Positions 2,213 to 41,725 of a stretch of DNA of 64,000 nucleotides are shown one piece after another. Origin of the DNA: Escherichia phage vB_EcoM_G2494; sequence record MK327935.1. The stretch is one strand, 5' to 3'. The notes beneath the pieces are model-generated. The model was given only the letters and a program-made list of their open reading frames with translations. It ran no database searches and was not told the DNA's origin. The number at the start of each line of letters is the position of its first letter. Within the stretch, counting starts at the first letter, position 1. The position numbers were made by a program, and so were the translations under genes.

Positions 2213-2620
2213 TTAGCGTCCAGATTCCAGCATACGCAATTCTATAGCATTCTTGATCGCAAATCCACGAGATTTAACGATATCAAGTGCGCGACCAGCA
2301 AAATCCATTACCATCTGGTAATATGCAATTTTCGTATCAAGCGGTAAGATCTCGTCGTCTGCTGCCATGACAACTTTCAATTCTGATTTCTCATATTCAG
2401 CGCGACACCAGTCATCACTACGGTTAGTGTAAAAGTCAAGACGATTTTTCATAGCCTTTTTCTTTTTAGCCTCAAGAGCAATCGTCTCTCTTTTCGCCTC
2501 GCTGTAAATCCTTAACCACTTTGAGTATACTACCGGATTATTCAGCGCCTCCCATTGCAACTTAGTCGCATCGATCTTCATGTCAGCTTCTAATTGTTCT
2601 TTCAAATCGTTTAGGTCCAT
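2213..2620 (-). CDS. uvsY: UvsY recombination mediator
   Basis: 135 aa; DATKLQWEA...LDFYTNRSD...KSRGFAIK matches T4 UvsY. Confidence 0.85.
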   Translation of the reverse strand: MDLNDLKEQLEADMKIDATKLQWEALNNPVVYSKWLRIYSEAKRETIALEAKKKKAMKNRLDFYTNRSDDWCRAEYEKSELKVVMAADDEILPLDTKIAYYQMVMDFAGRALDIVKSRGFAIKNAIELRMLESGR

Positions 2621-2667
2621 AATATCCCCTTATTCACACTAAGACCTATATCATATCACACACAAAA

Positions 2668-3066
2668 TCACTTTGCAAGTCTTATGCGTAGTTGTTCAAG
2701 ATCATCTGGGTTATCTATTACTGAAAAGTAGATTGATACTATGATTGAGTTATCGTCGTACTGCGGAGTTACTTCTACTGTCAGGTTTCGGACCCGTGGT
2801 TCATAGTTTCGGATCGCCTCATTGATGTTTTTTGATAAGGTGTCCACTGTCAGTGGGTTCATGTTCTCAAACAGTGATTTATTGAGATCGCATCCAAACA
2901 GTGGATCAAATGGACGAGATCCCTTGCGAGTAGTCACGATCAGTAGAATAGAATCCTTAACCGCTTTAATCCCTATGTTCTTTTTAACGTCGTTATTCCA
3001 CGATCTGGATATATTGAGATCCAAATCAGTATACATCTGATTAATAGTTGCCATGTTATACCTCAA
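2668..3066 (-). CDS. 25: baseplate wedge protein gp25
   Basis: 132 aa; TTRKGSRPFDPLFGCDL and VIDNPDD motifs as in T4 gp25. Confidence 0.9.
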   Translation of the reverse strand: MRYNMATINQMYTDLDLNISRSWNNDVKKNIGIKAVKDSILLIVTTRKGSRPFDPLFGCDLNKSLFENMNPLTVDTLSKNINEAIRNYEPRVRNLTVEVTPQYDDNSIIVSIYFSVIDNPDDLEQLRIRLAK

Positions 3067-3692
3067 AGAATTTTAAGGAAACTGGATAGACCTGATAATG
3101 AATATACACCAGATTCCCCGCATTCGCACTTGATCGGTACTGCCAGCGTGATTTGATTTCTTGTTAGCTCGTCGATCACTTCTTCCACTTTATCCGTGGT
3201 AAGCATATCCAGCACGCGGTCAAAGTCCTGTGCGTTCAGGTCGTCTATATTGAATTGCTGATCGCCGATCACGATATATTCGATACATGCAATTACCATC
3301 TGCATAATATCAACATCTTCTGTAAACTTAGGTTGACGAAATTTGATTTTTACTTGCCCTAAGTCCAGAATATACGGTTCAACTTCTGGTATCTGTGTGC
3401 GTGAAACATCAAGAGAATATACTTTCTCTTTATTGCATACACCACATACCCAAGTAGCATCAATTTTCATCTTATTGAGGCTGTGACACCATAAGAGAAG
3501 AAAAATATATTCTGCTTCGCATTTCTCTAGCTCTAATGCATTGATCCCCGTACATTCATGTATGATCTCTATAACAACCTCTGACAGCTTGCCAGTCTCT
3601 TTTGCTGCTACCAGTTTTTGAAATTCGCCGAAGGTGAAAGCACGGGCGTGTATCAACTTTTCGCCTAATTGGATCTTGAAAAAGTATTGCAT
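3063..3692 (-). CDS. 26: baseplate hub subunit gp26
   Basis: 209 aa, overlaps gp25 start, synteny with T4 26-25. Confidence 0.75.
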   Translation of the reverse strand: MQYFFKIQLGEKLIHARAFTFGEFQKLVAAKETGKLSEVVIEIIHECTGINALELEKCEAEYIFLLLWCHSLNKMKIDATWVCGVCNKEKVYSLDVSRTQIPEVEPYILDLGQVKIKFRQPKFTEDVDIMQMVIACIEYIVIGDQQFNIDDLNAQDFDRVLDMLTTDKVEEVIDELTRNQITLAVPIKCECGESGVYSLSGLSSFLKIL

Positions 3693-5620: not shown

Positions 5621-6138
5621 TGACAGAAACTAAACCTATGCTAAAATTTGTTGTTCCTGTAAAAAAATTAGAGATAAACGGGAAACATATCAAGATCCCA
5701 AAAATGGGGATTAAGCAACATCGATTATTAAAAGATGTTCGTAGCTGTGATGAAACATTAAAGATTCTTCTTGATTCAATCTGTCCTGGGTTAAACGCTG
5801 CCGAGTCTGAATTGGTTATGCTTAACCTTTGTGCGTTTAATGGCAAGTGTCTGGAAGAAAAAGATGGTCTTAAGCTGTCTGATGTGTATATTTGTACAGA
5901 GACTGAATTTACTTTAAATGGTAAAGTCTTTAAATTTAAAAATCCAGTGTATACTTCTGACCCCATTATCGATGACGCTGATTTCTTGAGTCATCATTAT
6001 CACGATCCTAGCGTAGACTTCCATGATTTCCCCGCTTTTATTATGGATTGGGCTACAGGATTAAGAAAAACTATTGCACTGGATACACCGGAAGGTACTA
6101 TCTATGGTGGAATTAACATATTGGATCGCCTATCATGA
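5620..6138 (+). CDS. 28: baseplate hub distal subunit gp28
   Basis: 172 aa, size and position as T4 gp28. Confidence 0.7.
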   Translation: MTETKPMLKFVVPVKKLEINGKHIKIPKMGIKQHRLLKDVRSCDETLKILLDSICPGLNAAESELVMLNLCAFNGKCLEEKDGLKLSDVYICTETEFTLNGKVFKFKNPVYTSDPIIDDADFLSHHYHDPSVDFHDFPAFIMDWATGLRKTIALDTPEGTIYGGINILDRLS

Positions 6139-7868
6139 ATAACGCATTAACATCATTTCGCGGGATGCGCAAGGAAGCGGAAGAAAACCCGATTGATAAA
6201 CTTAACAAATTAGATAAACTTGATTCTATTGATAATTTGCAAGCTGCTACCGAATTGGTGGCAGAGACAGTAGAACAAAAATCTAATGAAGTTGTTGGTG
6301 CGGTCGAGGATAACACCGCAGCCAATGAATTGACGGCAGAAAATACACAATCTACCGCTGGCAATACCCAAAAAACTTATGAAGAATTGCAAAAACTCAA
6401 TAATTTCTCTTCTCAGATGAATGAGAAATTACGTGGTTTTGGTGTTATGATGGAACGTAGATTTGGTGTTGTCAGTAAAATGGCTAGCGGTATTGGTGCG
6501 ATTGAAGAAGCATTGAAAAAACCGGAACAACCGCAAACAATGCCATCACCTCAGCCAGTTTTGCCTACTGTACCGGAACAGCCTAACAATGACAACTATC
6601 AAGGTCTTCCAAAGAAAAAACCAGATGCTGATGACCGAAAGAAAAAGAACGTCACAGATAAGCGTAATGCTGATTCTATGGAAAATCTTCTTAAAGTTGT
6701 TCGTGGAGGATTTAAAGAAACCATAGGTATCTCTAATAAGGTCTTAGGGATGTTATTTAAGATCACCTTGACCGCTATGGCAGAAGCCGCAAAATGGGGT
6801 GCCATTTTGATGGGTATTGTTTTTGTCATTGATACCCTGATGGTTCATTTCAGATATTGGAGCGATTTATTCGAGACAAAATTCAGTGAATTTATGGATA
6901 AAGCCGGAGAATGGGCTGGACCAATTAGTGATATTCTAACAACTATTCGTCAAGTTCGAGATTATTGGTCTAAAGGCGAATATGGAGAGTTAATTAAATC
7001 TCTTGTTATGGGTATTGGTGATGCATTCTATAAAACCTTTATCCAACTTGATCGAATTATCACTACTGGTATTGCTAAAATTCTTCGCATGATCCCTGGT
7101 ATGGGTGATTATGCCGATAAGTTAGAATATGGTGCTTTAAAATCTGCTGTCGCTCAAGGCTATACGCCAAATGAAAGAGAACTCGAATTAATGGATAAGG
7201 TCGAGTCTGAACACGAAGAGGACAAATACGGGGAGCGTACTGGTTGGGCCGGAAAAGCCCGTGATATTGGTGAGGCTATCGGTGACTCCATTAAAGATAA
7301 AGTTAATGAAGGACTTGTTAGTCTGGGATGGAGAGATCAAAAGGATGTTGACGCAGAGAAGCGACAAGAAGAATTAAAGCGCGGGGAATATGAGTCTGTT
7401 TCTGCTGAACAACGATCTGCTAGTCGTAAACTTAGAATTAAAAGTGAGGGCGCGATCAATAATATTAATGAAGTTATGGAGAACTTGAGCGGTGACTATG
7501 ACAAAGAAAGAATGGGAGAGTTGAAAAGGGATATTGATGTTTACCGTGAGAAAGTTCAAGATCCTACATTAGTTGAAAGTGATCGTTCTCAGTTAGAGCG
7601 TCTTATTGAAAAATTTGATGAGATGTATGCTGATAAGACTAAGGGTGTTGTGCAAACACAGCCGGTTCCTGCAACTGAAACGGAAACAGCAAAACAAGCG
7701 GAGCGTACTGAACAAATGCAGAAACAAGCTGCAATCCAGCAACAAACGACAAATCAGACCTCAAACGTAAATAATACACAAATTGTAACAAACAATAGAA
7801 CTATTAAACAGGGTGCACCAACAACTAGAATTGATGCCCCCGGTACAATTAATATGGGGAACTTTTAA
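6135..7868 (+). CDS. 29: baseplate hub / tail-length determining protein gp29
   Basis: 577 aa, coiled-coil rich, synteny with T4 gp29. Confidence 0.75.
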   Translation: MNNALTSFRGMRKEAEENPIDKLNKLDKLDSIDNLQAATELVAETVEQKSNEVVGAVEDNTAANELTAENTQSTAGNTQKTYEELQKLNNFSSQMNEKLRGFGVMMERRFGVVSKMASGIGAIEEALKKPEQPQTMPSPQPVLPTVPEQPNNDNYQGLPKKKPDADDRKKKNVTDKRNADSMENLLKVVRGGFKETIGISNKVLGMLFKITLTAMAEAAKWGAILMGIVFVIDTLMVHFRYWSDLFETKFSEFMDKAGEWAGPISDILTTIRQVRDYWSKGEYGELIKSLVMGIGDAFYKTFIQLDRIITTGIAKILRMIPGMGDYADKLEYGALKSAVAQGYTPNERELELMDKVESEHEEDKYGERTGWAGKARDIGEAIGDSIKDKVNEGLVSLGWRDQKDVDAEKRQEELKRGEYESVSAEQRSASRKLRIKSEGAINNINEVMENLSGDYDKERMGELKRDIDVYREKVQDPTLVESDRSQLERLIEKFDEMYADKTKGVVQTQPVPATETETAKQAERTEQMQKQAAIQQQTTNQTSNVNNTQIVTNNRTIKQGAPTTRIDAPGTINMGNF

Positions 7869-30955: not shown

Positions 30956-31024
30956 TTTGATTCTCCTTTGTTTCGTTTCGATGGGGGTATATTACTACCC
31001 CCGTTATTCAGTGTCAACTACTTT

Positions 31025-31243
31025 TTACTTGTTGTATTCATTCCACCATTGGGTTAGCTTATCAATTATTTTTGTGTTTCTATCCAACTTCTCCCACCGT
31101 TTTCTAGGGTTTATCAACCGGAATAGGTAAGGTGTACTTGTTAAGTGGACTCGGTCAATGCAGTGATTGATGTACTGCTTTTCAATTCTAAGTTTCATCT
31201 TTTTACGATGAAAATATGCAATGACTTGTTCTTCTGTTTCCAT
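31025..31243 (-). CDS. hypothetical protein (72 aa)
   Basis: ORF. Confidence 0.45.
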   Translation of the reverse strand: METEEQVIAYFHRKKMKLRIEKQYINHCIDRVHLTSTPYLFRLINPRKRWEKLDRNTKIIDKLTQWWNEYNK

Positions 31244-31343
31244 ATGTTCCTCCGTTTAGATGTGCGTATTATGCTATGGCAAGATCAGATTGTCAACACC
31301 CAATAACAAAAAAGTCGCCACTATGGGCGACTTTGAACAAACA

Positions 31344-31820
31344 TTAATCATGACCGTGATTTGCAATATCCGCTCGCGTCTTATCTTTGTGATTTCCTAC
31401 GTCAAAGACACGATAACCATTTTCACGCAAAACTTTAATCACTTCTGGGTTATCCTCAAAGACTCCGACAACTTCATCCTTATCAAAGGATTTAATTACC
31501 TCTAATTTGATGTGATAGTCTTTACGGGAATCGGTACGGCCTCTCATAAAGATTTTATCAAAACACACCCCGTTAGAAATTAACCAATCAATTGTTTCCA
31601 TGTAAGCATGTGAACTTCGTCCGGTGAGGATGTAAATCAAATGCCCGTTGTCGGAAAGAGCATTAATAACACGAATTACATCGTAAATGGGGGAATCTCC
31701 CCCACATGCCTTGTTATATTCGATCCATGACTCGACTTTATCAAGATTTTCGGTTGGCATCTTTGCTAGTCGATGTGTTGGATCTGTAATCGTAAAATCT
31801 AAATCGACAAAATATATCAT
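31344..31820 (-). CDS. HAD-superfamily phosphatase-like protein
   Basis: N-terminal DxDxT motif FVDLDFTIT. Confidence 0.55.
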   Translation of the reverse strand: MIYFVDLDFTITDPTHRLAKMPTENLDKVESWIEYNKACGGDSPIYDVIRVINALSDNGHLIYILTGRSSHAYMETIDWLISNGVCFDKIFMRGRTDSRKDYHIKLEVIKSFDKDEVVGVFEDNPEVIKVLRENGYRVFDVGNHKDKTRADIANHGHD

Positions 31821-33007
31821 AGATATTTCCCGAATCGGTTGTAGTCATCGTCTGTTAAATCGGTATTAACCTGAGATACCAGATACATGATCTCTACTTC
31901 TTGCGCCGCGTTTTGAACTTCGTCAGAGTTTAACCACTTACGCATCCACGGTAAAGGATGACGACGAACACTAAACGGGCTTTTCAGTCCGGCAGCACGC
32001 ATACGGGAATCTGCCAGGTATTCTACATAGGTTTTCAGAATTTCCGGTGACAGGTTAGGAATTGCCCCCATTGCGAATAGGTGGTCTACCCATTCTTTTT
32101 CTTGCTCGACAACATCCAGAAAGATTTTCGTTGCTTCGCCTTCAAGTTCTTCCGCAATCTGTTTCCACTCATCACCATCAACCCCAGTTTGCCATTGACG
32201 AATAATGTATTGTGTGCCTTTTAAGTGAAGTTGTTCATCACGCGCAATAAATTTCATGATCTTCGCGTTACCTTCCAGTAAACCACGTTCGGCAAAGCTG
32301 AAAGTACATGCAAAGGACACATAAAAACGGATTGCTTCCAGTGCATTTACGCAGTGTGCACACAGATAAATCGAAGCCATCAGATCTCGTTTTGTGTCTT
32401 CAAAAAATCTTCTTGCATCATCTAATTCTGTCTGATCGTCTCGTTCTTCCCAATAGTGGTGGAGAACTTCTTCTTCCCAATAGCGGAGATCTTCTTTTGC
32501 ATTCTCATACTTACGAATCCAATAGAGAACATCATCATAATATTTCCCGATAGATTCCGCTCGCTTCATGATAGAAGGGTTATCGATGATCTGGTCGAAC
32601 TCACTAGCAGGATCAATAAAACAGTTACGCATAATGTGTGTATAGCTTCTGCTATGAATCGTTTCGCTGAATGTCCATGTTTGCAACCATGTATCGAGAG
32701 TTGGATCAGATACAATTGGACCAAATACACGGGCTGGCGCTCTGCCTTGAATCGAATCTAGCAAAGTTTGATAACGTAAGTTCTCGGTGAAGAAACGCTT
32801 TTCAACATCGCTCATATTCAGATATTGAATGCGGTCAGTTGCAAGTGAAATCTCTTCTGGACGCCAGAAAAATGACAACTGCTTCTCGATCAACTCTTCA
32901 AATACTTGATGACGCTGAATATCATAACGGGCAATCCCTAAATCACTACCAAAAAACATCGGTTCGGTCATAATATCAACATGTTCACGATTAAATACGC
33001 TCATCAC
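31817..33007 (-). CDS. nrdB: ribonucleotide reductase small subunit
   Basis: 396 aa; diiron ligand region LEGEATKIFLD...; uninterrupted (no intron). Confidence 0.85.
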   Translation of the reverse strand: MMSVFNREHVDIMTEPMFFGSDLGIARYDIQRHQVFEELIEKQLSFFWRPEEISLATDRIQYLNMSDVEKRFFTENLRYQTLLDSIQGRAPARVFGPIVSDPTLDTWLQTWTFSETIHSRSYTHIMRNCFIDPASEFDQIIDNPSIMKRAESIGKYYDDVLYWIRKYENAKEDLRYWEEEVLHHYWEERDDQTELDDARRFFEDTKRDLMASIYLCAHCVNALEAIRFYVSFACTFSFAERGLLEGNAKIMKFIARDEQLHLKGTQYIIRQWQTGVDGDEWKQIAEELEGEATKIFLDVVEQEKEWVDHLFAMGAIPNLSPEILKTYVEYLADSRMRAAGLKSPFSVRRHPLPWMRKWLNSDEVQNAAQEVEIMYLVSQVNTDLTDDDYNRFGKYL

Positions 33008-33546
33008 TATTCTCCATCAATTTTGTTTATATTGTAGCCCATGTTGCCTTTTTCTATTTCTCTCAACGCAACTGAATTAAACGCTCTTGCCGCATCTTGT
33101 TCGCTATCAAATCTCCCTATATGAACACTCTTTCCTTGTATATTAATATGAACTAGCCATCTATTTGTGTACTTACACCAACTTACCCCGTTATATTTTG
33201 ATGATGCACCTTTAAATTTAGTTCTGTTTCTATTATTGACAGAATAATCAGTACCTCGTAAATTTTCTATATGATTGTTCAGCTTGTTTCGGTCGATGTG
33301 ATCTATAACTTTAGGCTTATGCCCGTGAAACATATGATAAATCACATGATGTATTAACTTCTTTCTATTGTCTACTGTTAGTTGAAGATATCCCCCATTA
33401 TGTGGACTTCCAACCTCATCACCAACTTTAACTTTATTGCTTGTTGAAACCTTTCTGAAAAGTTTACCATCTTCGTATTTAAATAGATAATGATACCTTT
33501 CGTAAAGTATTCGGTCCTCTTCCGTATAATGTATTACCTCATACAT
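33007..33546 (-). mobile_element. HNH-AP2 homing endonuclease (mobE position between nrdB and nrdA)
   Basis: HNH region HHVIYHMFHG...HIDRNKLNN plus AP2-like YNGVSWCKYTNRWLVHI...GRFDSEQDAARAFN. Confidence 0.7.
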
Positions 33547-33556
33547 AATATTTTAC

Positions 33557-33724
33557 TCACTTTTTAACACAAAATAACTTAGTATTTCTGTTTACTTCGC
33601 TATCCCGCTGCAATTCCTGCACAGCTTCAAAACAATTTTGATATGATGAAAACTCTACGCTGGTAACAGTTCCTTTATTATATACGCCTACGCTAACGGA
33701 AAGCAATAACCATAATGTAGCCAT
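33557..33724 (-). CDS. small hydrophobic protein (55 aa)
   Basis: MATLWLLLSVSVG...; tandem paralog of next gene; not in ORF track. Confidence 0.45.
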   Translation of the reverse strand: MATLWLLLSVSVGVYNKGTVTSVEFSSYQNCFEAVQELQRDSEVNRNTKLFCVKK

Positions 33725-33897
33725 TAGTTCACCTTTTGTTTTTCAACGCAATATAGATTCATAAAGCGTTTATTGTCTTCGCTGATAATCTCGCGAGCTT
33801 TAACGCAATCCTGCTTTGTTGCAAACTCAATGCTTGACATATTTCCGTAATTATACATTGAATTGCTTATTGCAATCAATAACCATACAGTAGCCAT
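33724..33897 (-). CDS. small hydrophobic protein (57 aa)
   Basis: MATVWLLIAISNS...; start overlaps upstream stop. Confidence 0.45.
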   Translation of the reverse strand: MATVWLLIAISNSMYNYGNMSSIEFATKQDCVKAREIISEDNKRFMNLYCVEKQKVN

Positions 33898-34064
33898 TAT
33901 CCGACAACCTCAAAACATTTATCATCAGGAAGAATCGCCCATTCTACACCGTATTCATCCTCGACGTAGTAGCAAGTCCCATCATGTCGAGCATCATATT
34001 CATCACCAACAACAAAGCTATCAGCTAGTTCAAAATCTACAGCAACACATTTTAATTTGGTCAT
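33897..34064 (-). CDS. small acidic protein (55 aa)
   Basis: ATG at 34064 with GAGGA RBS; ORF track 76-aa call over-extends into promoter. Confidence 0.5.
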   Translation of the reverse strand: MTKLKCVAVDFELADSFVVGDEYDARHDGTCYYVEDEYGVEWAILPDDKCFEVVG

Positions 34065-34095
34065 AATAAAATCCTCACTTGTTTTTGATGGTTGT

Positions 34096-34124
34096 ATTAT
34101 AGCGGGGATTTCTCCCCGCGTCAA
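34096..34124 (-). promoter_or_regulatory. sigma70-like early promoter
   Basis: TTGACG, palindromic spacer CGGGGAGAAATCCCCGC, TATAAT. Confidence 0.55.
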
Positions 34125-34132
34125 CACTTATT

Positions 34133-36376
34133 TTACAGCTTGCAAGATGAGCACTCGCTAGCGTCTTCCGTACCATCTGCACCGTCGCGAACGTTCGCAT
34201 AATACAGGGTTTTCAGACCGTAATATTGAGCAAACAACATATCATCTAATACATCAGCAATATCGACTTTACCAGTCTTATAAGTGCTTGGATCGTAGGA
34301 TGTGTTGGAACTAATCGCCTGATCTACAAACTTCTGCATGATCGCTGCCAGTGTCAGATAAGGCTTGTTACCTTTCTTGATCAGTGTCCAAAGCAGGTCA
34401 ATAACATCAGCATTATTCTCTACGTTCGGAATAACCTGATTAAATTGCCCTTCTTTCGATCCTTTAACCGATACAATACCGCGAGGCGGTTCAATACCGT
34501 TTGTGCTGTTAGATACCTGAGAAGACGACTCACAAGGCATCAGAGCCGAAAGCGTACTGTTACGAATGCCATATTTTTTCAGGTCTTCGCGCAGTTCTTC
34601 CCAATCCATCTCATATACCGGATCAACCAGTTCATCTACTGTCTTTTTGTACCAGTCGATAGGCAGTTCACCGCGTCCATAACGTGTTTCGTGCATCAGT
34701 TCGCAAGCACCCTTCTCTTTAGCCAGTTGCACACTAGCCTTAATCAGAGCATATTGCAAGCGTTCAAACGTTTTATGCGTAAACTCGTTAGCGTCTTCAT
34801 ATGTGAAGAAATTATCCGCGAGATACGATGCAAAGTTAGTCACCCCAACACCCAGAGAGCGACGTTTTTTGGCTGTCAGAGCTTGCTCTACAGGATAATC
34901 CTGGTAATCTAACAGGTTGTCAAGTGCACGCACCATAACCATAGCAATGCGTTCTACTTCTTCCATATTTTCGATATCAAAGTTTCCTAAAACATATGCT
35001 GCCAAAGTACATAGGCTGATCTCTGAATCATCACGACCCATCGGTTTTGTAGGCAGAGCAATTTCACAACACAGGTTGGATTGTTTAATCGGTGCTACAT
35101 TACGAATAAACGCCCCGTGATTGTTCATGTTGTCTGTGAACGTTGGGTAGATTCGACCAGTGTTAAAACGTTCAATTGCCACCGCTAAAAACAGGTCTTC
35201 GGCTTTAACACGAGTTTTACGAACACTCGGATCTTTTTCCAGTTTTTCGTAAAGCTGGCGGAAACCTTCCTCATCTCGGAAGTATAGATCCCACAACAAG
35301 CCACCTGCAACATCTGGACTAAACAGAGTAATGTAATCCCGTTTAAGGAATCGCTCTACCATCAGGTTATTAATCTGTACGCCGTAATCAAGATGACGAA
35401 TGCGGTTATCTTCCACCCCCTTATTGTTCTTTAACACAATCAGACTTTCAAACTCTAAATGCCACATTGGGTAATAGAGAGTCGCCGCCCCGCCACGAAT
35501 ACCGCCTTGTGAGCATGACTTAACGGCAGTCTGAAAATGTTTCCAGAATGGGATAACGCCAGTATGACGAACTTCACCATGCCCGATCTTAGATCCTTCC
35601 GCGCGAATCATGCCAGCGTTGATACCGATACCAGCACGCTTGCTAATATACTTGATGATTGCATTTGCTGTTTCGTTGATGCCCTGCAATGAGTCATCAC
35701 TTTCAATCACCACACACGAACTAAATTGGCGTGTTGGGGTACGCACACCTGCCATAATCGGAGTAGGCAGAGAGATTTGCTTATTCGCAACAGCATTATA
35801 AAAATCAATCACATGTTCAAGTCGATTTTCGGTCTCTTCTTGATGCAAGCACATACCGATCAGCATATACGCAAATTGCGGTGTTTCGATGATTTTCTTA
35901 GTGCTGCGATCCTGAACAAGATATTTCTCTTTTAACTGCATCGCACCAGCATAGGTCATTTTAAAATCAAGTTTATGGTCGATGAATTTCTCCAGATATT
36001 CCACTTCTTCACGGGAATACTTTTGCAGAATTTCGCGATCATATTTTCCGATTGCAATATTACGCTCAATATGGCTATAAAAATCAATAGGTTGGAATTG
36101 ACCGTATACTGATTTACGAAGCGCGAACATTGCAAGGTTACTTGCTACATATTGATAATCGGGTGTTTCTACCGTGATGTTATCTGCGGCGACCTTAATC
36201 AATACTTTCTGGATATCATTGGTAGACATACCTTCTGTCAGAAGTGGTTCAACCATATCAAACAATTCATATGGATCAACGTTATGACCTTCGGCTGCCG
36301 CTTCCAGAATTTTCATTACTTTTTCTTTTTCAAACGGAACAGTCAGACCGGAAGACTTAACAACATTTTTAATCAT
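34133..36376 (-). CDS. nrdA: ribonucleotide reductase large subunit
   Basis: 747 aa; class Ia catalytic Cys region and C-terminal CxxC; ATP-cone N-terminus. Confidence 0.9.
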   Translation of the reverse strand: MIKNVVKSSGLTVPFEKEKVMKILEAAAEGHNVDPYELFDMVEPLLTEGMSTNDIQKVLIKVAADNITVETPDYQYVASNLAMFALRKSVYGQFQPIDFYSHIERNIAIGKYDREILQKYSREEVEYLEKFIDHKLDFKMTYAGAMQLKEKYLVQDRSTKKIIETPQFAYMLIGMCLHQEETENRLEHVIDFYNAVANKQISLPTPIMAGVRTPTRQFSSCVVIESDDSLQGINETANAIIKYISKRAGIGINAGMIRAEGSKIGHGEVRHTGVIPFWKHFQTAVKSCSQGGIRGGAATLYYPMWHLEFESLIVLKNNKGVEDNRIRHLDYGVQINNLMVERFLKRDYITLFSPDVAGGLLWDLYFRDEEGFRQLYEKLEKDPSVRKTRVKAEDLFLAVAIERFNTGRIYPTFTDNMNNHGAFIRNVAPIKQSNLCCEIALPTKPMGRDDSEISLCTLAAYVLGNFDIENMEEVERIAMVMVRALDNLLDYQDYPVEQALTAKKRRSLGVGVTNFASYLADNFFTYEDANEFTHKTFERLQYALIKASVQLAKEKGACELMHETRYGRGELPIDWYKKTVDELVDPVYEMDWEELREDLKKYGIRNSTLSALMPCESSSQVSNSTNGIEPPRGIVSVKGSKEGQFNQVIPNVENNADVIDLLWTLIKKGNKPYLTLAAIMQKFVDQAISSNTSYDPSTYKTGKVDIADVLDDMLFAQYYGLKTLYYANVRDGADGTEDASECSSCKL

Positions 36377-36444
36377 ATTACCTCACTTCATATTTTAGCA
36401 GGAACAAGTTTATCCTCCATATTGGGGGCTTTCGCCCCCTTTGT

Positions 36445-37665
36445 TTATACTGCCATTTGAGCGGTGATCGCTGGATGGCTTTGATAGTTGTGAATTTTAA
36501 AGTCTTTCGGAGTCTTTGTCAATACCTCATCTAAAGATTTAAATTCCGGCAACTCAATTGTTGGTTTATCAAACGGAACACGGCTTAACTGTTCCATAAC
36601 TTGATCAAAGTGGTTTTTGTAAATGTGAGTATCTCCACCAGAGAAAATCAGTTCTCCTACCTCAAGATCACACATTTTCGCTATGATGTGAGTTAACAGC
36701 GCATAGCTGGCAACATTAAAGGGCAAGCCCAAAAAGCTGTCTACGCTTCGCTGAAACCACATACAAGACAGTTTACCTTCATTGACGTAGAATTGCACGA
36801 AAGGATGACATACACCTAATACAGCATTATGTGTTCCTTGTACGTTCCATGAGTCAATAATGATCCGGCGATCCGTTGGATTATTTTTAATTTGTTCAAT
36901 CACGTTTTGTAACTGGTCTTCCCAAATCTTCGGGCGATAGACATATTCTTCATCGTCTTTAGGGCTTGATGTGTCTACATCCATACTAACAAAGATCGTG
37001 GTATCAGGTGCTAAAATGTCACCGCCCAGATATTCATTATCAAACAGATAACCGAAATAACCATCATCTACCCATTCCTGGAATCCCCACAAGCAATATG
37101 CATCATTAACAAAATTAGATTGAGTCTTCCAGTGATCTGCTACCAGAATATAATCAAACTCTTCATAACGCATACCACGCCAGATAGCACATAAACGGTC
37201 TTCTGTTTCATTGGTTGGCGTAAAGTCTTCTACCCACGGGTGTTTAAATGTATGTGTATATTTGCTCTTAACGCGCTTAATTTTGATTTCACCGTGTGGA
37301 TGAATCGGTTTGCGTCGCCATGCCATACCATACATATTGCCGACATTATAACCATTGAATCGCAAAGGATTCTTTTCTTTCATATCAAGACAGTTGCCGC
37401 GCCAAATGTCGAAGGCTTCTTCGTCAAACTTACCGCGTGTAATTTCCTGTAAGCGACGGCGGTCAAGTGATCCCTCCATAAACCATAGCAATTCACCAAT
37501 TACAGAGGCTGTAGCCATCTTTTTAGTGGTCAGTAAGGGGAAACCCTTGCTTAAGTCAATTCGCATTTCTGCACCGAATTTAGAGAGCGTACCTATCCCC
37601 GTTCGGTCTTCACGAGGCCAGCCATTATCAAGAACATCACGCAACAGTTTCAAATATTCTTTCAT
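36445..37665 (-). CDS. td: thymidylate synthase with ~120-aa in-frame insertion
   Basis: ThyA motifs DRTGIGT, catalytic Cys in LGVCHPF, MWFQRSVDSFLGLPFN; 406 aa versus T4 Td 286 aa. Confidence 0.8.
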   Translation of the reverse strand: MKEYLKLLRDVLDNGWPREDRTGIGTLSKFGAEMRIDLSKGFPLLTTKKMATASVIGELLWFMEGSLDRRRLQEITRGKFDEEAFDIWRGNCLDMKEKNPLRFNGYNVGNMYGMAWRRKPIHPHGEIKIKRVKSKYTHTFKHPWVEDFTPTNETEDRLCAIWRGMRYEEFDYILVADHWKTQSNFVNDAYCLWGFQEWVDDGYFGYLFDNEYLGGDILAPDTTIFVSMDVDTSSPKDDEEYVYRPKIWEDQLQNVIEQIKNNPTDRRIIIDSWNVQGTHNAVLGVCHPFVQFYVNEGKLSCMWFQRSVDSFLGLPFNVASYALLTHIIAKMCDLEVGELIFSGGDTHIYKNHFDQVMEQLSRVPFDKPTIELPEFKSLDEVLTKTPKDFKIHNYQSHPAITAQMAV

Positions 37666-37999
37666 CCCACATCACCTTTTTCTTATTGATTGCTTTCTTA
37701 CGCAGTTTTGCTACTGTCTCGTCAATATCGATAAAGACAACGCCACGGTCGAATACAGTAGCAGGTCTTGAGATATCGCTATTTTCTTGCACAGGAAGCC
37801 ATGATGCGCTCGCTTCATCATAGAGATATTATAAACCGTAATAATCTACGGCTACTGCGTAGTTTTCACTGGTAGCCGTCCATAATTGAATAATACCGAC
37901 TTTCATTATTGTTCCCGTCCGCAATGTAAGCACCGACTACCAGCAAACATTAAAGATTCACCACAATGTTTGCACTCATAATCTGTCAGAATTTTCATG

Positions 38000-38581
38000 T
38001 TACGCCTTCTTACGTTCTAAAATTTGTTCGCTGATCAGGTAATTATCAAGGAAGTAATTATGTTCTTCTTTGGTTACAAAGTCAAAATACAATTCCTGAA
38101 TCATTTCCTTAGATATACCAACATCATATTCAAATGGATCGTTGATCCCTGAACGTTGAACATACGTTAACACAATACGGTCCGCAAAGTCAACTGCTTT
38201 TTCAATCAGGGAAGGTCCGCCAATAACGCTTACCAAACCTTGCAATTTCTCTATGACTTCTAATAATTCCTTCAATCCACCATCATTAGTAATCGCGGTA
38301 TACACATCTGGTTGGTCGCCGTTTTTTGCTTTCGGTGCTGGCTTACTGGTATCGGTGCTAACAACCACATTCACACGGCCTTCCAGTGCTTTAGGTAGAC
38401 TTTCAAAGGTATTACGTCCCATTACAACCGCCGCAAGATCAACATCTCCCATAGTGCGCATTTTAAAGTTTTCCATGTCTTTTTTGATTGGACGTCCCCA
38501 CGGTAAACCGCCTTTAAAACCAAAAGCCCAATTTTCATCTGACATTTTAGTATCACCAATCGCAAATACACATTGAATCAT
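38000..38581 (-). CDS. frd: dihydrofolate reductase
   Basis: 193 aa; FGFKGGLPWGRP and GRNTF motifs of DHFR. Confidence 0.8.
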   Translation of the reverse strand: MIQCVFAIGDTKMSDENWAFGFKGGLPWGRPIKKDMENFKMRTMGDVDLAAVVMGRNTFESLPKALEGRVNVVVSTDTSKPAPKAKNGDQPDVYTAITNDGGLKELLEVIEKLQGLVSVIGGPSLIEKAVDFADRIVLTYVQRSGINDPFEYDVGISKEMIQELYFDFVTKEEHNYFLDNYLISEQILERKKA

Positions 38582-38596
38582 AATATAAATCTCCCA

Positions 38597-38926
38597 TCAA
38601 ATCAGTTTGAAATAGTTTTCATTTACATTTTCTTCTGTGATTGCTGTCTTAAATTCTTGACCGTTATCCGGTGTGATGAAATAACGGTCTGAATAATCAC
38701 GAAAACGTTTTAAGTGAGATACCCCAACATTAACACCATGTTCCCAAAAACGAAAGGTAATCATTTTTGGTTCATATCGATAGTCGCTGGTCAACACAGT
38801 ACCATCACCGCGACGGGCTTCATAAACCGTAATACATTCACGATTGGCGGCTTTTAGGCATTCTTCAATAGTGCCGCACGAGATAATACTTACTTTTTCA
38901 TCTACGATTTGTTCTACAGTCCACAT
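38597..38926 (-). CDS. hypothetical protein (109 aa)
   Basis: ORF downstream of frd. Confidence 0.5.
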   Translation of the reverse strand: MWTVEQIVDEKVSIISCGTIEECLKAANRECITVYEARRGDGTVLTSDYRYEPKMITFRFWEHGVNVGVSHLKRFRDYSDRYFITPDNGQEFKTAITEENVNENYFKLI

Positions 38927-39429: not shown

Positions 39430-40404
39430 TTACATCCCTAACAGAGCGTCAAGATCATCCAGATCAGAAGCGGAGGAAGTACCGCCACCCAGATCCAGCG
39501 ATGCCATCAGGTCATCAGCGGAAGAATCTAACGCCGTGCTAGCTGCGTTAATACCAACTACAGTGCTAGCTGCGTTAATACCAGCATCGAATGCATTCAT
39601 CTGTGCGTCAAAATCGTCAAGCTGGCTGTTAATCGCTGCCGCAGCACTGAAAGCCACAGCACCAGCTACCATAGAAACGCCCATAGTTTTCTTAAATTTG
39701 GTTTCCAGTTCATCGAACGGTTTAAACTGGCTAGGTGCTACAATCTCACTCAGATCAACCATGTTTTCCATCAGATATTTCTGATATGCTTCGTCTTCAA
39801 TTTTCGGAAGCTGTGATTGCTGCATGAAACGAGAATCATCATAGTTCTGGTGTTTATCAACCTTCTTAGCTTTCAGGAGGAAGTTAGCACCGGAGAACAC
39901 ACAAGTTACATCTACCGGAACTTCGCCCATGTCGGTATTCACGTTCACCATTGCAACGATCTTATCATAAATTTTCTGACCGAAGCGGAATTTGAATACC
40001 TTACCTTCATTTTCTGGTGCTTGAGGATCTTTCAGTACCAGAATATTTGCGTAGTAAGACGCTTTACGCTTAATCAGTTGCCATTCGGTTTTATCGGTAT
40101 TGTACAGGTCTTTTTCGTTAATATATTTGCACACAGGGCAAGAATCAAAATCACCGTGGGTGCTGGAGCAGTTTTCCCAATACCATTTGCCATTAACTTT
40201 GAAGGAATGGTTTACCAGTTTCACAATCGGCAGACCGTCTTCTGTCTTAGGCGGCAGGAAGCGAATCAGGGCTTCACCGTTACCTGCTGCATCAGTCTTA
40301 ATCTTCCACTCTTTCGGATCTTCTTTGGAGAAACCGTTGCCACCTTTCAGTGCGGCCAGTTGAGCTTGCAGTTTGGAGCTATCTTGACGACGAAACATGT
40401 TCAT
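39430..40404 (-). CDS. 32: single-stranded DNA-binding protein gp32
   Basis: KGGNGFSKEDPKEWKIK, GNGEALIRFLP, CSSTHGDFDSCPVCKY Zn site match T4 gp32. Confidence 0.9.
   Translation of the reverse strand: MNMFRRQDSSKLQAQLAALKGGNGFSKEDPKEWKIKTDAAGNGEALIRFLPPKTEDGLPIVKLVNHSFKVNGKWYWENCSSTHGDFDSCPVCKYINEKDLYNTDKTEWQLIKRKASYYANILVLKDPQAPENEGKVFKFRFGQKIYDKIVAMVNVNTDMGEVPVDVTCVFSGANFLLKAKKVDKHQNYDDSRFMQQSQLPKIEDEAYQKYLMENMVDLSEIVAPSQFKPFDELETKFKKTMGVSMVAGAVAFSAAAAINSQLDDFDAQMNAFDAGINAASTVVGINAASTALDSSADDLMASLDLGGGTSSASDLDDLDALLGM
39536..39589. repeat. in-frame 27-bp tandem duplication within gene 32 C-terminal region
   Basis: GTGCTAGCTGCGTTAATACCA repeated with 27-bp period (encodes GINAAST twice). 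Confidence 0.8.
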
Positions 40405-40464: not shown

Positions 40465-41061
40465 TTAATTGCTTGTCAATACTTTATCAATTATATCTAA
40501 CAGTTTTGGCTTTCTATTTTCAAATTCTAACATCTCTTCGGGAGAAATGTCAACTACTTCTGTTTTGTTGAAAAAGTTTGGGTCTATAGCATCAGCAACA
40601 AAGTTTCTCGCAAGTGCTGCCGCTTTCTCATGAACATATATTCCCAAATATATCAACTTCTTTCTTTCGACCTGAATATTGGCAACATATTTACCATCTC
40701 GTTTATAAAGACTAACACCGATATATTCAGACGATCGACCTTTCTGTTTACCCATATTTCTTGAGTTTTGTTGCTCGTTCGCATCTCTCAAGTTTTCAAT
40801 CCGATTATCTGTTATAATTCGGTTAACATGGTCAACGTATTTTGGCATGTATCCATGATGCATAAAGAAAATTATTCTATGCTCTTTATGATGTTTACCA
40901 TCGATACACACCAATCTGTATCCATGACTAGGATTAACTCCACCCGCTCTAGATCCGACTTTATGCTTTCTGTTTGTCGATATCTTGCGAATCAGCTTAC
41001 CGTTATCATATTTAAAGAGTTCATGACAACGAGCATACAATTCAGGATCATATGTTTTCAC
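40465..41061 (-). mobile_element. HNH-AP2 homing endonuclease between genes 32 and 59
   Basis: HNH region HRIIFFMHHG...HVNRIITDN plus AP2-like EYIGVSLYKRDGKYVANI...GIYVHEKAAALARN. Confidence 0.7.
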
Positions 41062-41725
41062 CTTTTAACCTCGATATTTCTTTACACTCTTTAACTACTT
41101 TAACAAATAATGCTCTTGCTTTTGCGGCGTCAATAACAAGTAGTTTCTTGTACGCCTTCATTTTAACACTATAAGTTTGCCAAATCAAGTCTTTGGCTAC
41201 CTTGTCGTGTTCGTCGATTATATTTAGAAAGCTATCTAACAACATAAACGACTCAAACGATATAATCCGATTTTGCAGTAGTTTAAAGATACCGCTAGTT
41301 TCGGTTGCGGGATTGTATGTAATTAGCTCTTTAAGAGTAACCCCGCGTTTCTCGGAGAAGTATACCAGACTTTTAATGTCATCGTCAAATCGTGTTGCTG
41401 CATCGGTTATCTTTCCTATGTATTCCATATAAAAGCCGTATGCGTCAACATCAGTGATTTCACCTACCCATGCATCGGTATTAGCTACCAGATTGCTTAG
41501 GAATAGGAAGTATAATTCTCTTAGATTGTACTTTTCCGCTAATTTTGCGAAATAATACTTATCTCTGCGTTTATTGAATGCGGCATCAGACAACCGCATC
41601 CTCCAATTGTATTTTACGCAATCATAACGCCCGTTCATATGAGCTTTCATCATGCAATATAACATATACACAGATTTAGCATTAATTCGCATATCTGGTT
41701 CTGGAGGAAGACGGTTTCTGATCAT
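41048..41725 (-). CDS. 59: helicase loader gp59
   Basis: KSVYMLYCMMKAHMNGRYDCVKYNWRMRLSDAAFNKRRDKYYF matches T4 gp59. Confidence 0.9.
   Translation of the reverse strand: MIRNRLPPEPDMRINAKSVYMLYCMMKAHMNGRYDCVKYNWRMRLSDAAFNKRRDKYYFAKLAEKYNLRELYFLFLSNLVANTDAWVGEITDVDAYGFYMEYIGKITDAATRFDDDIKSLVYFSEKRGVTLKELITYNPATETSGIFKLLQNRIISFESFMLLDSFLNIIDEHDKVAKDLIWQTYSVKMKAYKKLLVIDAAKARALFVKVVKECKEISRLKGENI

Follow-up and report, generated by a model that had tools for sequence, protein, structure and literature searches.

The 179-aa open reading frame (ORF) that abuts nrdB in Escherichia phage vB_EcoM_G2494 is, in our view, a free-standing homing endonuclease gene of the HNH-AP2 class that is active now or was so until recently. 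We give this reading a probability of about 0.8; the nuclease activity itself is deduced from the sequence. The target of the enzyme would quite likely lie within nt 1-280 of nrdB. The analysed stretch (hereafter the window) comprises 64,000 nt of record MK327935.1 and belongs to a Krischvirus, an RB49-like T4 relative of the family Straboviridae. Sporadic presence of a gene at one site, together with a divergent tract linked to it, is the pattern that homing with co-conversion would be expected to leave, and we regard this interpretation of the locus as supported. The HNH-AP2 class was reportedly defined by Magnani et al. in 2004, and plant AP2/ERF transcription factors are presumed to descend from enzymes of this class. 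The ORF and the parts of its predicted product are the following:

33007-33546, minus strand: ORF of the proposed free-standing HNH-AP2 homing endonuclease (179 aa; ATG at 33546, TAG stop at 33009-33007; from the ORF list, Pfam and PHROG)
33358-33546, minus strand: N-terminal region, residues 1-63 (one helix and a four-stranded sheet; together with the HNH motif it superposes on I-HmuI)
33226-33357, minus strand: predicted HNH (His-Me finger) catalytic motif, residues 64-107 (Pfam HNH_3 and homologue alignment)
33052-33201, minus strand: predicted C-terminal AP2 DNA-binding domain, residues 116-165 (three strands and a helix)

The original prediction described a free-standing protein composed of an HNH nuclease and an AP2-like DNA-binding part at 33007-33546, and both parts are recovered. 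The HNH_3 family of Pfam (PF13392) matches residues 64-98 with 38.2 bits, above the cut-off of 24.8 (E=1.1e-9), and the protein matches phrog_99, 'HNH endonuclease', in PHROGs (E=2.9e-48). The AP2 match (PF00847, residues 116-155, 30.8 bits, E=3.8e-7) lies 2.5 bits under the gathering cut-off of 33.3. This sub-threshold score is offset by evidence from the fold, a three-stranded sheet against a C-terminal helix that is superposable on solved AP2 domains. Further, PF00847 matches are precomputed for most homologues of the endonuclease, and a PDB sequence search matched the protein to the AP2 repeats of Arabidopsis WRI1 (E=3e-6). Its sequence is identical (100% of amino acids) to QBO66467.1, annotated as 'putative HNH endonuclease' of phage G5211.

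Residue conservation was assessed in 39 aligned sequences, the window protein and 38 homologues drawn from a search of 5.8 billion proteins. D82, H83, N91, N95 and R97 are invariant among them, H66, N90, N104 and N107 are conserved in at least 90%, and the window protein has every one of these residues. The beta-beta-alpha-metal fold is present and zinc-binding cysteines are absent from the active-site region. The DH...N...N residues without zinc-binding cysteines presumably resemble the motif of I-HmuI. We infer that the endonuclease is a small monomer, in which a predicted I-HmuI-like sheet and His-Me finger occupy the first ~107 residues and the AP2 domain the last ~60.

The nearest non-identical relative (P0002, 53% identity) is found between baseplate genes gp7 and gp8 on a 170-kb T4-like contig, and no other sampled member of the class is more than 53% identical. 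The position of P0002 between gp7 and gp8 thus indicates that the family moves between junctions of conserved genes. More distant relatives in Krischviruses (41-47% identity) adjoin dam or lie between gene 59 and gene 32, and the window itself harbors a 41%-identical HNH-AP2 paralogue at 40465-41061.

Over the 4.6 kb surrounding the ORF, identity is 99.0% with Escherichia phage vB_EcoM_G5211 and 95-97% with RB49 and dozens of further phages. All genes here lie on the minus strand and follow each other in the order td, nrdA, three small ORFs, the endonuclease gene, nrdB and a gene for a PseT-like phosphatase:

36445-37665, minus strand: td
34133-36376, minus strand: nrdA (747 aa, uninterrupted; one continuous Pfam match)
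34096-34124, minus strand: sigma-70-like promoter candidate just downstream of nrdA (TTGACG, 17-nt spacer, TATAAT; 11 of 12 matches in a consensus scan only)
33557-34064, minus strand: three small ORFs of 55, 57 and 55 aa, upstream of the endonuclease gene and codirectional with it; two are tandem paralogues (phrog_5579)
33005-33556, no strand assigned: inserted cassette of 552 nt, including a 10-nt leader at 33547-33556; it stands in place of the 15-nt empty-site spacer TAGTGAGGTGAATTA (gene strand)
31817-33004, minus strand: nrdB (395 aa from ATG at 33004, uninterrupted; continuous Pfam match), the presumed target gene

Both nrd genes had been described as uninterrupted and free of group I introns. 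Their continuous Pfam matches bear this out, and an Rfam search of positions 31000-38600 yielded no group I intron in nrdA, nrdB or td at E<=1. The td product contains an insertion of ~145 aa that has no Pfam match.

The endonuclease gene was also foreseen as an insert, and alignment with RB49, kvi, MIZ6 and Delraymugoa, which defines the cassette borders, reveals it as such: the 15-nt empty site of these relatives is replaced by the 552-nt cassette. The ATG of the endonuclease follows 10 nt past the stop of the last small ORF (55 aa), and a single base separates its TAG from the ATG of nrdB (TAGTGATG). The GGAG in the last endonuclease codons is the new ribosome-binding site of nrdB, the original one being GAGGTG. 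GC content of the cassette is 33%, as compared to 40-47% in the nrd genes.

No T4-type late promoter (TATAAATA) was found near the endonuclease gene, and the consensus scan gave no strong sigma-70-like site directly upstream of it. Because the sole strong site of this kind lies just after nrdA, the gene looks like a promoterless cassette. The site at 34124-34096 is a candidate for the nearest promoter of the small ORFs, the endonuclease gene and nrdB. In T4, mobE and six further free-standing endonuclease genes were also described as promoterless cassettes (PMC2988022). The RNA around the translation start of the endonuclease folds with z=-2.2 into a weak 6-bp AU hairpin over the AUG, which is too weak to claim translational control.

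To describe the distribution of the gene, we used 58 Krischvirus records matching the nrdB-proximal region. The gene is present in two of them, G5211 and G37-3, each with 100% amino acid identity. An empty site with the 15-nt spacer occurs in about 48, and a different, 215-aa 'homing endonuclease' abuts the start of nrdB in the other eight (JSE twice, AV108, FL15, PTE-Eco09, phiS, SSG23 and SFHK24). Roughly 83% of the sampled relatives thus have no gene at the site and a working nrdB with its own ribosome-binding site. Presence of the ORF at this site in all relatives would speak against the homing endonuclease reading that the original prediction put forward; two carriers and about 48 empty sites fit it, and the occurrence of another endonuclease gene at the same spot in JSE, PTE-Eco09, phiS and others agrees with its designation of the locus as a homing hotspot.

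Beyond these records, a protein cluster of the endonuclease at 90% identity is represented on several dozen assembly contigs. In all 11 metagenome/SRA loci (L011, L019-L028), the cassette is again at this site, with the third small ORF on one side and nrdB on the other. The upstream junction (AAAAAGTGA followed directly by GTAAAATATT-ATG) is identical in the eight metagenomic loci compared and also in G5211 and G37-3, and the 70 nt further upstream vary among these eight loci. Such combination of a variable flank and an identical junction fits a single origin with subsequent recombination into different backgrounds. As all carriers share one junction and one nrdB tract, no more than one acquisition with later recombination is proven. 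The same picture could in principle also arise from linkage and ordinary homologous recombination, without an active enzyme.

An unlikely alternative is to be considered here: the gene might be a defunct or nearly defunct passenger, which homed in the past and now persists only through its linkage to nrdB or is mobilised in trans by other endonucleases. The single junction to which all carriers trace would be in line with this. So would the frameshifted copies (1-nt deletion at nt 208, TTT to TT) in at least 14 contigs from several samples, in which the reading frame breaks shortly before the HNH motif into parts of 80 and 108 aa. Trans-homing also has a precedent at this locus in T4, where I-TevIII is moved by MobE (PMC2790892). 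However, the window copy is full length with every invariant or near-invariant residue of the family intact, no more than one to three residues separate it from the named 179-aa variants in the cluster, and none of the carriers examined has a second endonuclease gene between nrdA and nrdB. The frameshifted copies show that the gene is dispensable and able to decay, and they equally represent the expected decay phase of a selfish cycle. 

Part of nrdB travels with the gene:

32727-33004, minus strand: nrdB 5´ tract travelling with the endonuclease gene (nrdB nt 1-278; ~15% divergent, with an abrupt end)
32726-32746, minus strand: densest endonuclease-linked cluster of differences, at the distal edge of the tract (nrdB nt 259-279; 10 of 21 bases differ; A91S, R92A, V93A)

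Differences per 100 nt were counted between the window and G5211, G37-3, RB49, kvi, MIZ6, Delraymugoa, PTE-Eco09 and phiS. Background divergence mostly amounts to 0-3 per 100 nt, apart from a few local mosaic patches. The bins at 32700-33004, beside the cassette, contain 22, 11 and 13 differences from every gene-less genome and 0-1 from the two carriers. At nucleotide resolution the tract spans nrdB nt 15-278 and differs from RB49-type alleles at 46 sites, which translate into 30 synonymous and 8 non-synonymous codons. In the densest cluster (nt 259-279), the carrier allele reads GGCAGAGCGCCAGCCCGTGTA and the non-carrier allele GGTCGCGCACCGTCCGCAGCA; past nt 279 hardly any difference remains between them. 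Beyond the opposite end of the cassette, the window and G5211 have three SNPs within 60 nt and G37-3 has none.

The association of the allele with the gene is strict: all 14 carriers examined have the endonuclease-type nrdB allele, and it is missing from the eight non-carriers aligned. Ten of the 11 metagenomic loci were typable at the 46 diagnostic sites (L021 is limited to the first 18 sites by a contig end), and each of the ten has the carrier-type allele. Patches of the common type interrupt it in L024 and L025 (nrdB nt 186-198, 237, 246-252 and 267) and in L028 (nt 112-168). When the target is sought among the positions that are carrier-type throughout, three clusters are left (nt 52-78, 216-231 and 261-278), so that this approach does not pinpoint a single one. 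Retention of these clusters fits selection that keeps particular nrdB positions carrier-type, alongside one insertion and recombinational spread.

A donor of the tract was sought in several ways. Sensitive blastn against the phage collection returned nothing above 87% identity across the full tract besides the two carriers, a 26-nt carrier-type cluster had no exact match in IMG/VR, and a protein-based IMG/VR scan for the donor lineage gave relatives of at most 45% identity only. As no phage exceeds 87% across the tract, the donor would be an unsampled lineage with ~15% divergence in nrdB. We read nt 1-278 of nrdB as a putative co-conversion tract.

The shape of this tract provides a hint about position of the cleavage site. 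In double-strand-break repair, conversion has to include the whole stretch from the cut to the cassette and may or may not extend past the cut. A cut in nrdB near the distal end of the tract would therefore best explain why the tract on the nrdB side has a constant length of 278 nt and that on the opposite side is short and variable. Among the three candidate recognition/immunity sites we favour nrdB nt 259-279, as a tentative choice with somewhat less than even odds.

A possible course of homing is as follows. In a mixed infection with a gene-less RB49-like phage, the enzyme would nick or cut the endonuclease-free nrdB within its first ~280 nt, perhaps around nt 259-279. Sequence recognition would be the task of the AP2 domain and probably also of the N-terminal sheet. 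In the repair that follows, the endonuclease-bearing genome would serve as template, and the cassette would be copied along with all of nrdB between it and the cut. The promoterless cassette would replace the 15-nt spacer before nrdB and, with its 3´ end, provide nrdB with a new Shine-Dalgarno sequence. Because the carrier nrdB allele would differ at the recognition sequence, it would be protected. Expression is probably achieved by read-through from transcripts that start upstream, either in the nrdA unit or at the sigma-70-like promoter at 34124-34096. As for the chemistry, MobE, MobA and I-HmuI each nick one strand of their targets (PMC2790892, PMC2988022). Taken with the I-HmuI-like residues of the window protein, this makes a strand-specific nick, turned into a recombinogenic break, the most likely mode of action.

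The same nuclease could instead mainly serve the phage, as a marker-exclusion weapon against competing Krischviruses or as an AP2-type regulator of nrdB, with homing as a side effect. We consider this slightly less probable than the decayed passenger. Free-standing phage endonucleases such as SegG are established agents of marker exclusion, nuclease genes are known to bound genetic exchange between phages (PMC2988022, PMC10448857), and AP2 domains elsewhere are modules of transcription factors. On the other hand, the ~83% of relatives without the gene manage with a working nrdB, and the conserved HNH residues favour catalysis over binding alone. Moreover, exclusion and homing are mechanistically one event, so this proposal shifts the emphasis rather than the mechanism. 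A non-mobile, general-purpose HNH nuclease that is located here by chance, with a role for instance in packaging or repair, is hardly credible: although many phage HNH proteins assist terminases (PMC3592412), terminase genes are not nearby, the gene is absent from most close relatives, and it combines a site-specific DNA-binding domain with a link to a co-conversion-like tract.

The gene was originally placed at the position of T4 mobE. This is right with respect to the interval, between nrdA and nrdB, and needs to be amended in two respects, since three small ORFs separate nrdA from the gene and the protein has no sequence similarity to MobE. We compared proteins of the T4 nrdA-nrdB region with the window protein and with the alternative occupant of the site by BLASTP. 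The window protein gave no alignment better than E=3.8 with T4 MobE, T4 NrdB.1 or the MobE-like protein of PTE-Eco09, and no match with I-TevIII. The absent BLASTP similarity and different Pfam domains rule out that it is a MobE homologue; its likeness to mobE is thus positional, not genealogical. In the alternative occupant in JSE, PTE-Eco09 and phiS, the first 140 residues are 45% identical to T4 MobE and the last 81 are 56% identical to T4 NrdB.1, and its Pfam content is HNH (PF01844-type, weak) and NUMOD3. By these sequence matches it is a true MobE homologue.

The MobE-bearing Krischviruses provide an internal control: their nrdB is of the common type over most of the tract and has a cluster of its own at nt ~109-129 (...GAATTAATTGAAAAATCTCTG..., Q42S). 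MobE nicks T2 nrdB at nt 122-126 with co-conversion of the flanks, and T-even phages with and without mobE are polymorphic at the nicking region of nrdB (Wilson & Edgell 2009, PMC2790892). The MobE-linked cluster of Krischviruses coincides with this nick region. Phage LF73P4 has the MobE-type cluster and no endonuclease gene, and in the HNH-AP2 carrier L028 the MobE-type cluster is embedded in the HNH-AP2-linked tract. These two alleles indicate that recombinant, possibly 'immune', nrdB alleles circulate. Unrelated endonucleases are known to replace each other in the nrdA-nrdB interval, where both MobE and Hef target nrdB (PMC2988022). We suggest, at a little under even odds, that the 5´ boundary of nrdB in Krischviruses is a contested landing pad. 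MobE-like (HNH-NUMOD3-zinc finger) and HNH-AP2 genes would exclude each other there, each with its own recognition stretch in the first ~280 nt and its own 'immune' nrdB allele.

If our assumptions are true, MobE and Hef are joined by a third, unrelated family of endonucleases that resides beside nrdB and apparently targets it, which strengthens the notion that selfish nucleases are drawn to ribonucleotide reductase genes. We know of no HNH-AP2 member from T4-like phages with a mapped cleavage site. The sharply bounded tract, a neat natural case of putative co-conversion, narrows the search for the target of this uncharacterised enzyme to less than 280 nt, and G5211 or G37-3 versus RB49 form a convenient experimental pair for studying HNH-AP2 target specificity. 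The contested landing pad, if real, would offer a natural and easily crossed system for competition of homing endonucleases and would yield the first mapped HNH-AP2 target in a T4-like phage. For genome annotation, the lesson is that a 'mobE position' does not equal a 'mobE homologue'. Both the HNH-AP2 class and the swapping of genes in this interval are already known, so the gene at the nrdB site is a tidy and unsurprising example of modest practical value. In the literature searched, we found no description of an HNH-AP2 member at the nrdB site, of the linked tract or of the alternation with MobE.

One parallel is T4 MobE. The two genes share the interval and the nrdB side of it, both are promoterless cassettes, and in both cases nrdB polymorphisms are co-inherited. 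MobE targets the 5´ part of nrdB, and the HNH-AP2 enzyme would do the same. The proteins themselves are different, MobE being composed of a PF01844-type HNH, NUMOD3 repeats and a zinc-finger tail, and the window protein of HNH_3 and AP2. The MobE-linked nrdB cluster (nt ~109-129) is distinct from the clusters linked to the HNH-AP2 gene. Further, T4 mobE overlaps the stop codon of nrdA, whereas the window gene is three small ORFs away from it.

Hef of phage U5 reportedly goes back to a study by Sandegren et al. from 2005. It provides a precedent for unrelated endonuclease genes that swap in the nrdA-nrdB interval and all target nrdB. The account of the interval in PMC2988022 has Hef in place of mobE between nrdA and nrdB, with nrdB as its target, and calls it a 'unique endonuclease'; 'hef-like' genes are also tabulated separately from HNH-AP2 (PMC2993671). 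By these descriptions Hef would differ from the window protein.

I-HmuI of Bacillus phage SPO1 (PDB 1U3E), an HNH nicking enzyme, has 19% sequence identity with the window endonuclease. It is encoded in an intron and binds DNA with a helical C-terminal part (helix-turn-helix), whereas the window protein is free-standing and carries AP2. The architecture is that of the HNH-AP2 genes of T4-related phages, which were tabulated for RB49, JSE, RB43 and RB16 (Petrov et al. 2010, PMC2993671); RB49ORF040c, for example, is listed as an HNH-AP2 endonuclease gene (Nolan et al. 2006, PMC1524935). They likewise have an N-terminal HNH_3 and a C-terminal AP2 and are free-standing, sporadic and situated between conserved genes. 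From these genes the window gene is distinguished by its own locus abutting nrdB and by identity of at most 53% to any sampled member.

Three pieces of the T4 genome, namely mobE (141 aa), a NUMOD3-like stretch in a second frame that carries no annotation, and nrdB.1 (83 aa, labelled 'hypothetical'), match in three frames one 215-aa MobE-like protein, the homologue encoded at the nrdB start in JSE and PTE-Eco09.

T4 (L009, NC_000866) 5717-6417: mobE to nrdB.1 locus
L004 1685-2332 and L012 1885-2532: comparison loci for this T4 stretch

Because a single protein is matched in three frames, T4 mobE looks as if two frameshifts had broken it up, with its zinc-finger DNA-binding tail now listed under the name nrdB.1. 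The one paper found to mention nrdB.1 is silent on this. MobE activity could reportedly not be detected in vitro (PMC2790892), a result on which the frameshifts may bear.

The HNH-AP2 gene, the free-standing endonuclease gene abutting nrdB in the window, also exists in frameshifted form. A 1-nt deletion in the TTT run at nt 208 leaves ORFs of 80 and 108 aa instead of one. Contigs with such a copy number at least 14 and come from several samples.

L019 2789-3327 (also L020-L022): frameshifted copy of the HNH-AP2 gene

The MobE-associated cluster of nrdB (nt ~109-129, Q42S; window equivalent 32876-32896) is present without MobE in LF73P4 (L013), and in the metagenomic genome L028 (3543-3840) it sits within the HNH-AP2-linked tract, the divergent nt 1-278 of nrdB found in carriers of the HNH-AP2 gene. 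Both alleles are recombinant and, possibly, doubly 'immune'.

Further features of nrdB are the following.

window 32444-32470: 27-nt in-frame indel (NrdB of 395 vs 386 aa)
window 32852-32872, minus strand: terminator-like hairpin with 9-bp stem and weak T tail

Among Krischviruses the indel is polymorphic, and it does not follow the endonuclease gene: in G37-3 the gene is present and the 27 nt are absent. A local divergent nrdB patch, at window 32300-32600, is seen in MIZ6-type phages. The hairpin, which overlies the conserved FFWRPEE codons, is probably just coding sequence; in T-even phages, this block was proposed as the MobE binding site by Wilson & Edgell (PMC2790892).

The interval between nrdA and nrdB varies as well.

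window 33557-33724, minus strand: small ORF, 55 aa, phrog_5579
window 33724-33897, minus strand: small ORF, 57 aa, phrog_5579
L006 (Delraymugoa) 2270-3109: DNA (cytosine) methyltransferase gene, ~840 nt, directly downstream of nrdA

The tandem small ORFs are paralogous, their products sharing 40% identity, a hydrophobic N-terminus and conserved cysteines. One unit was lost from G37-3 through a 173-nt deletion, and a single small ORF is left in JSE. The methyltransferase insertion, found in some Krischviruses (Delraymugoa, Aragogtheria, LF73P4, KMB43), marks a second variable spot of the interval. In LF73P4 the gene appears disrupted, the longest ORF matching the N-terminus having 198 aa vs 279 aa in Delraymugoa.

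Two other loci of the window deserve mention.

window 36445-37665, minus strand: td, thymidylate synthase, 406 aa
window 39430-40404: gene 32, ssDNA-binding protein
window 40465-41061, minus strand: second HNH_3-AP2 gene, 198 aa
window 41048-41725: gene 59, helicase loader

The length of td is due to an in-frame insertion of ~145 aa (residues ~105-250) that separates the Pfam domain halves; the insert itself gave no match in a Pfam search, and no intron was detected in td. Similar lengths (1221-1233 nt) are seen in RB49 and other Krischviruses. The second HNH_3-AP2 protein is 41% identical to the HNH-AP2 protein beside nrdB, and its gene, lying between gene 59 and gene 32, is found in some Krischviruses only. 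In T4, segG, an unrelated GIY-YIG endonuclease gene, lies in the same interval.
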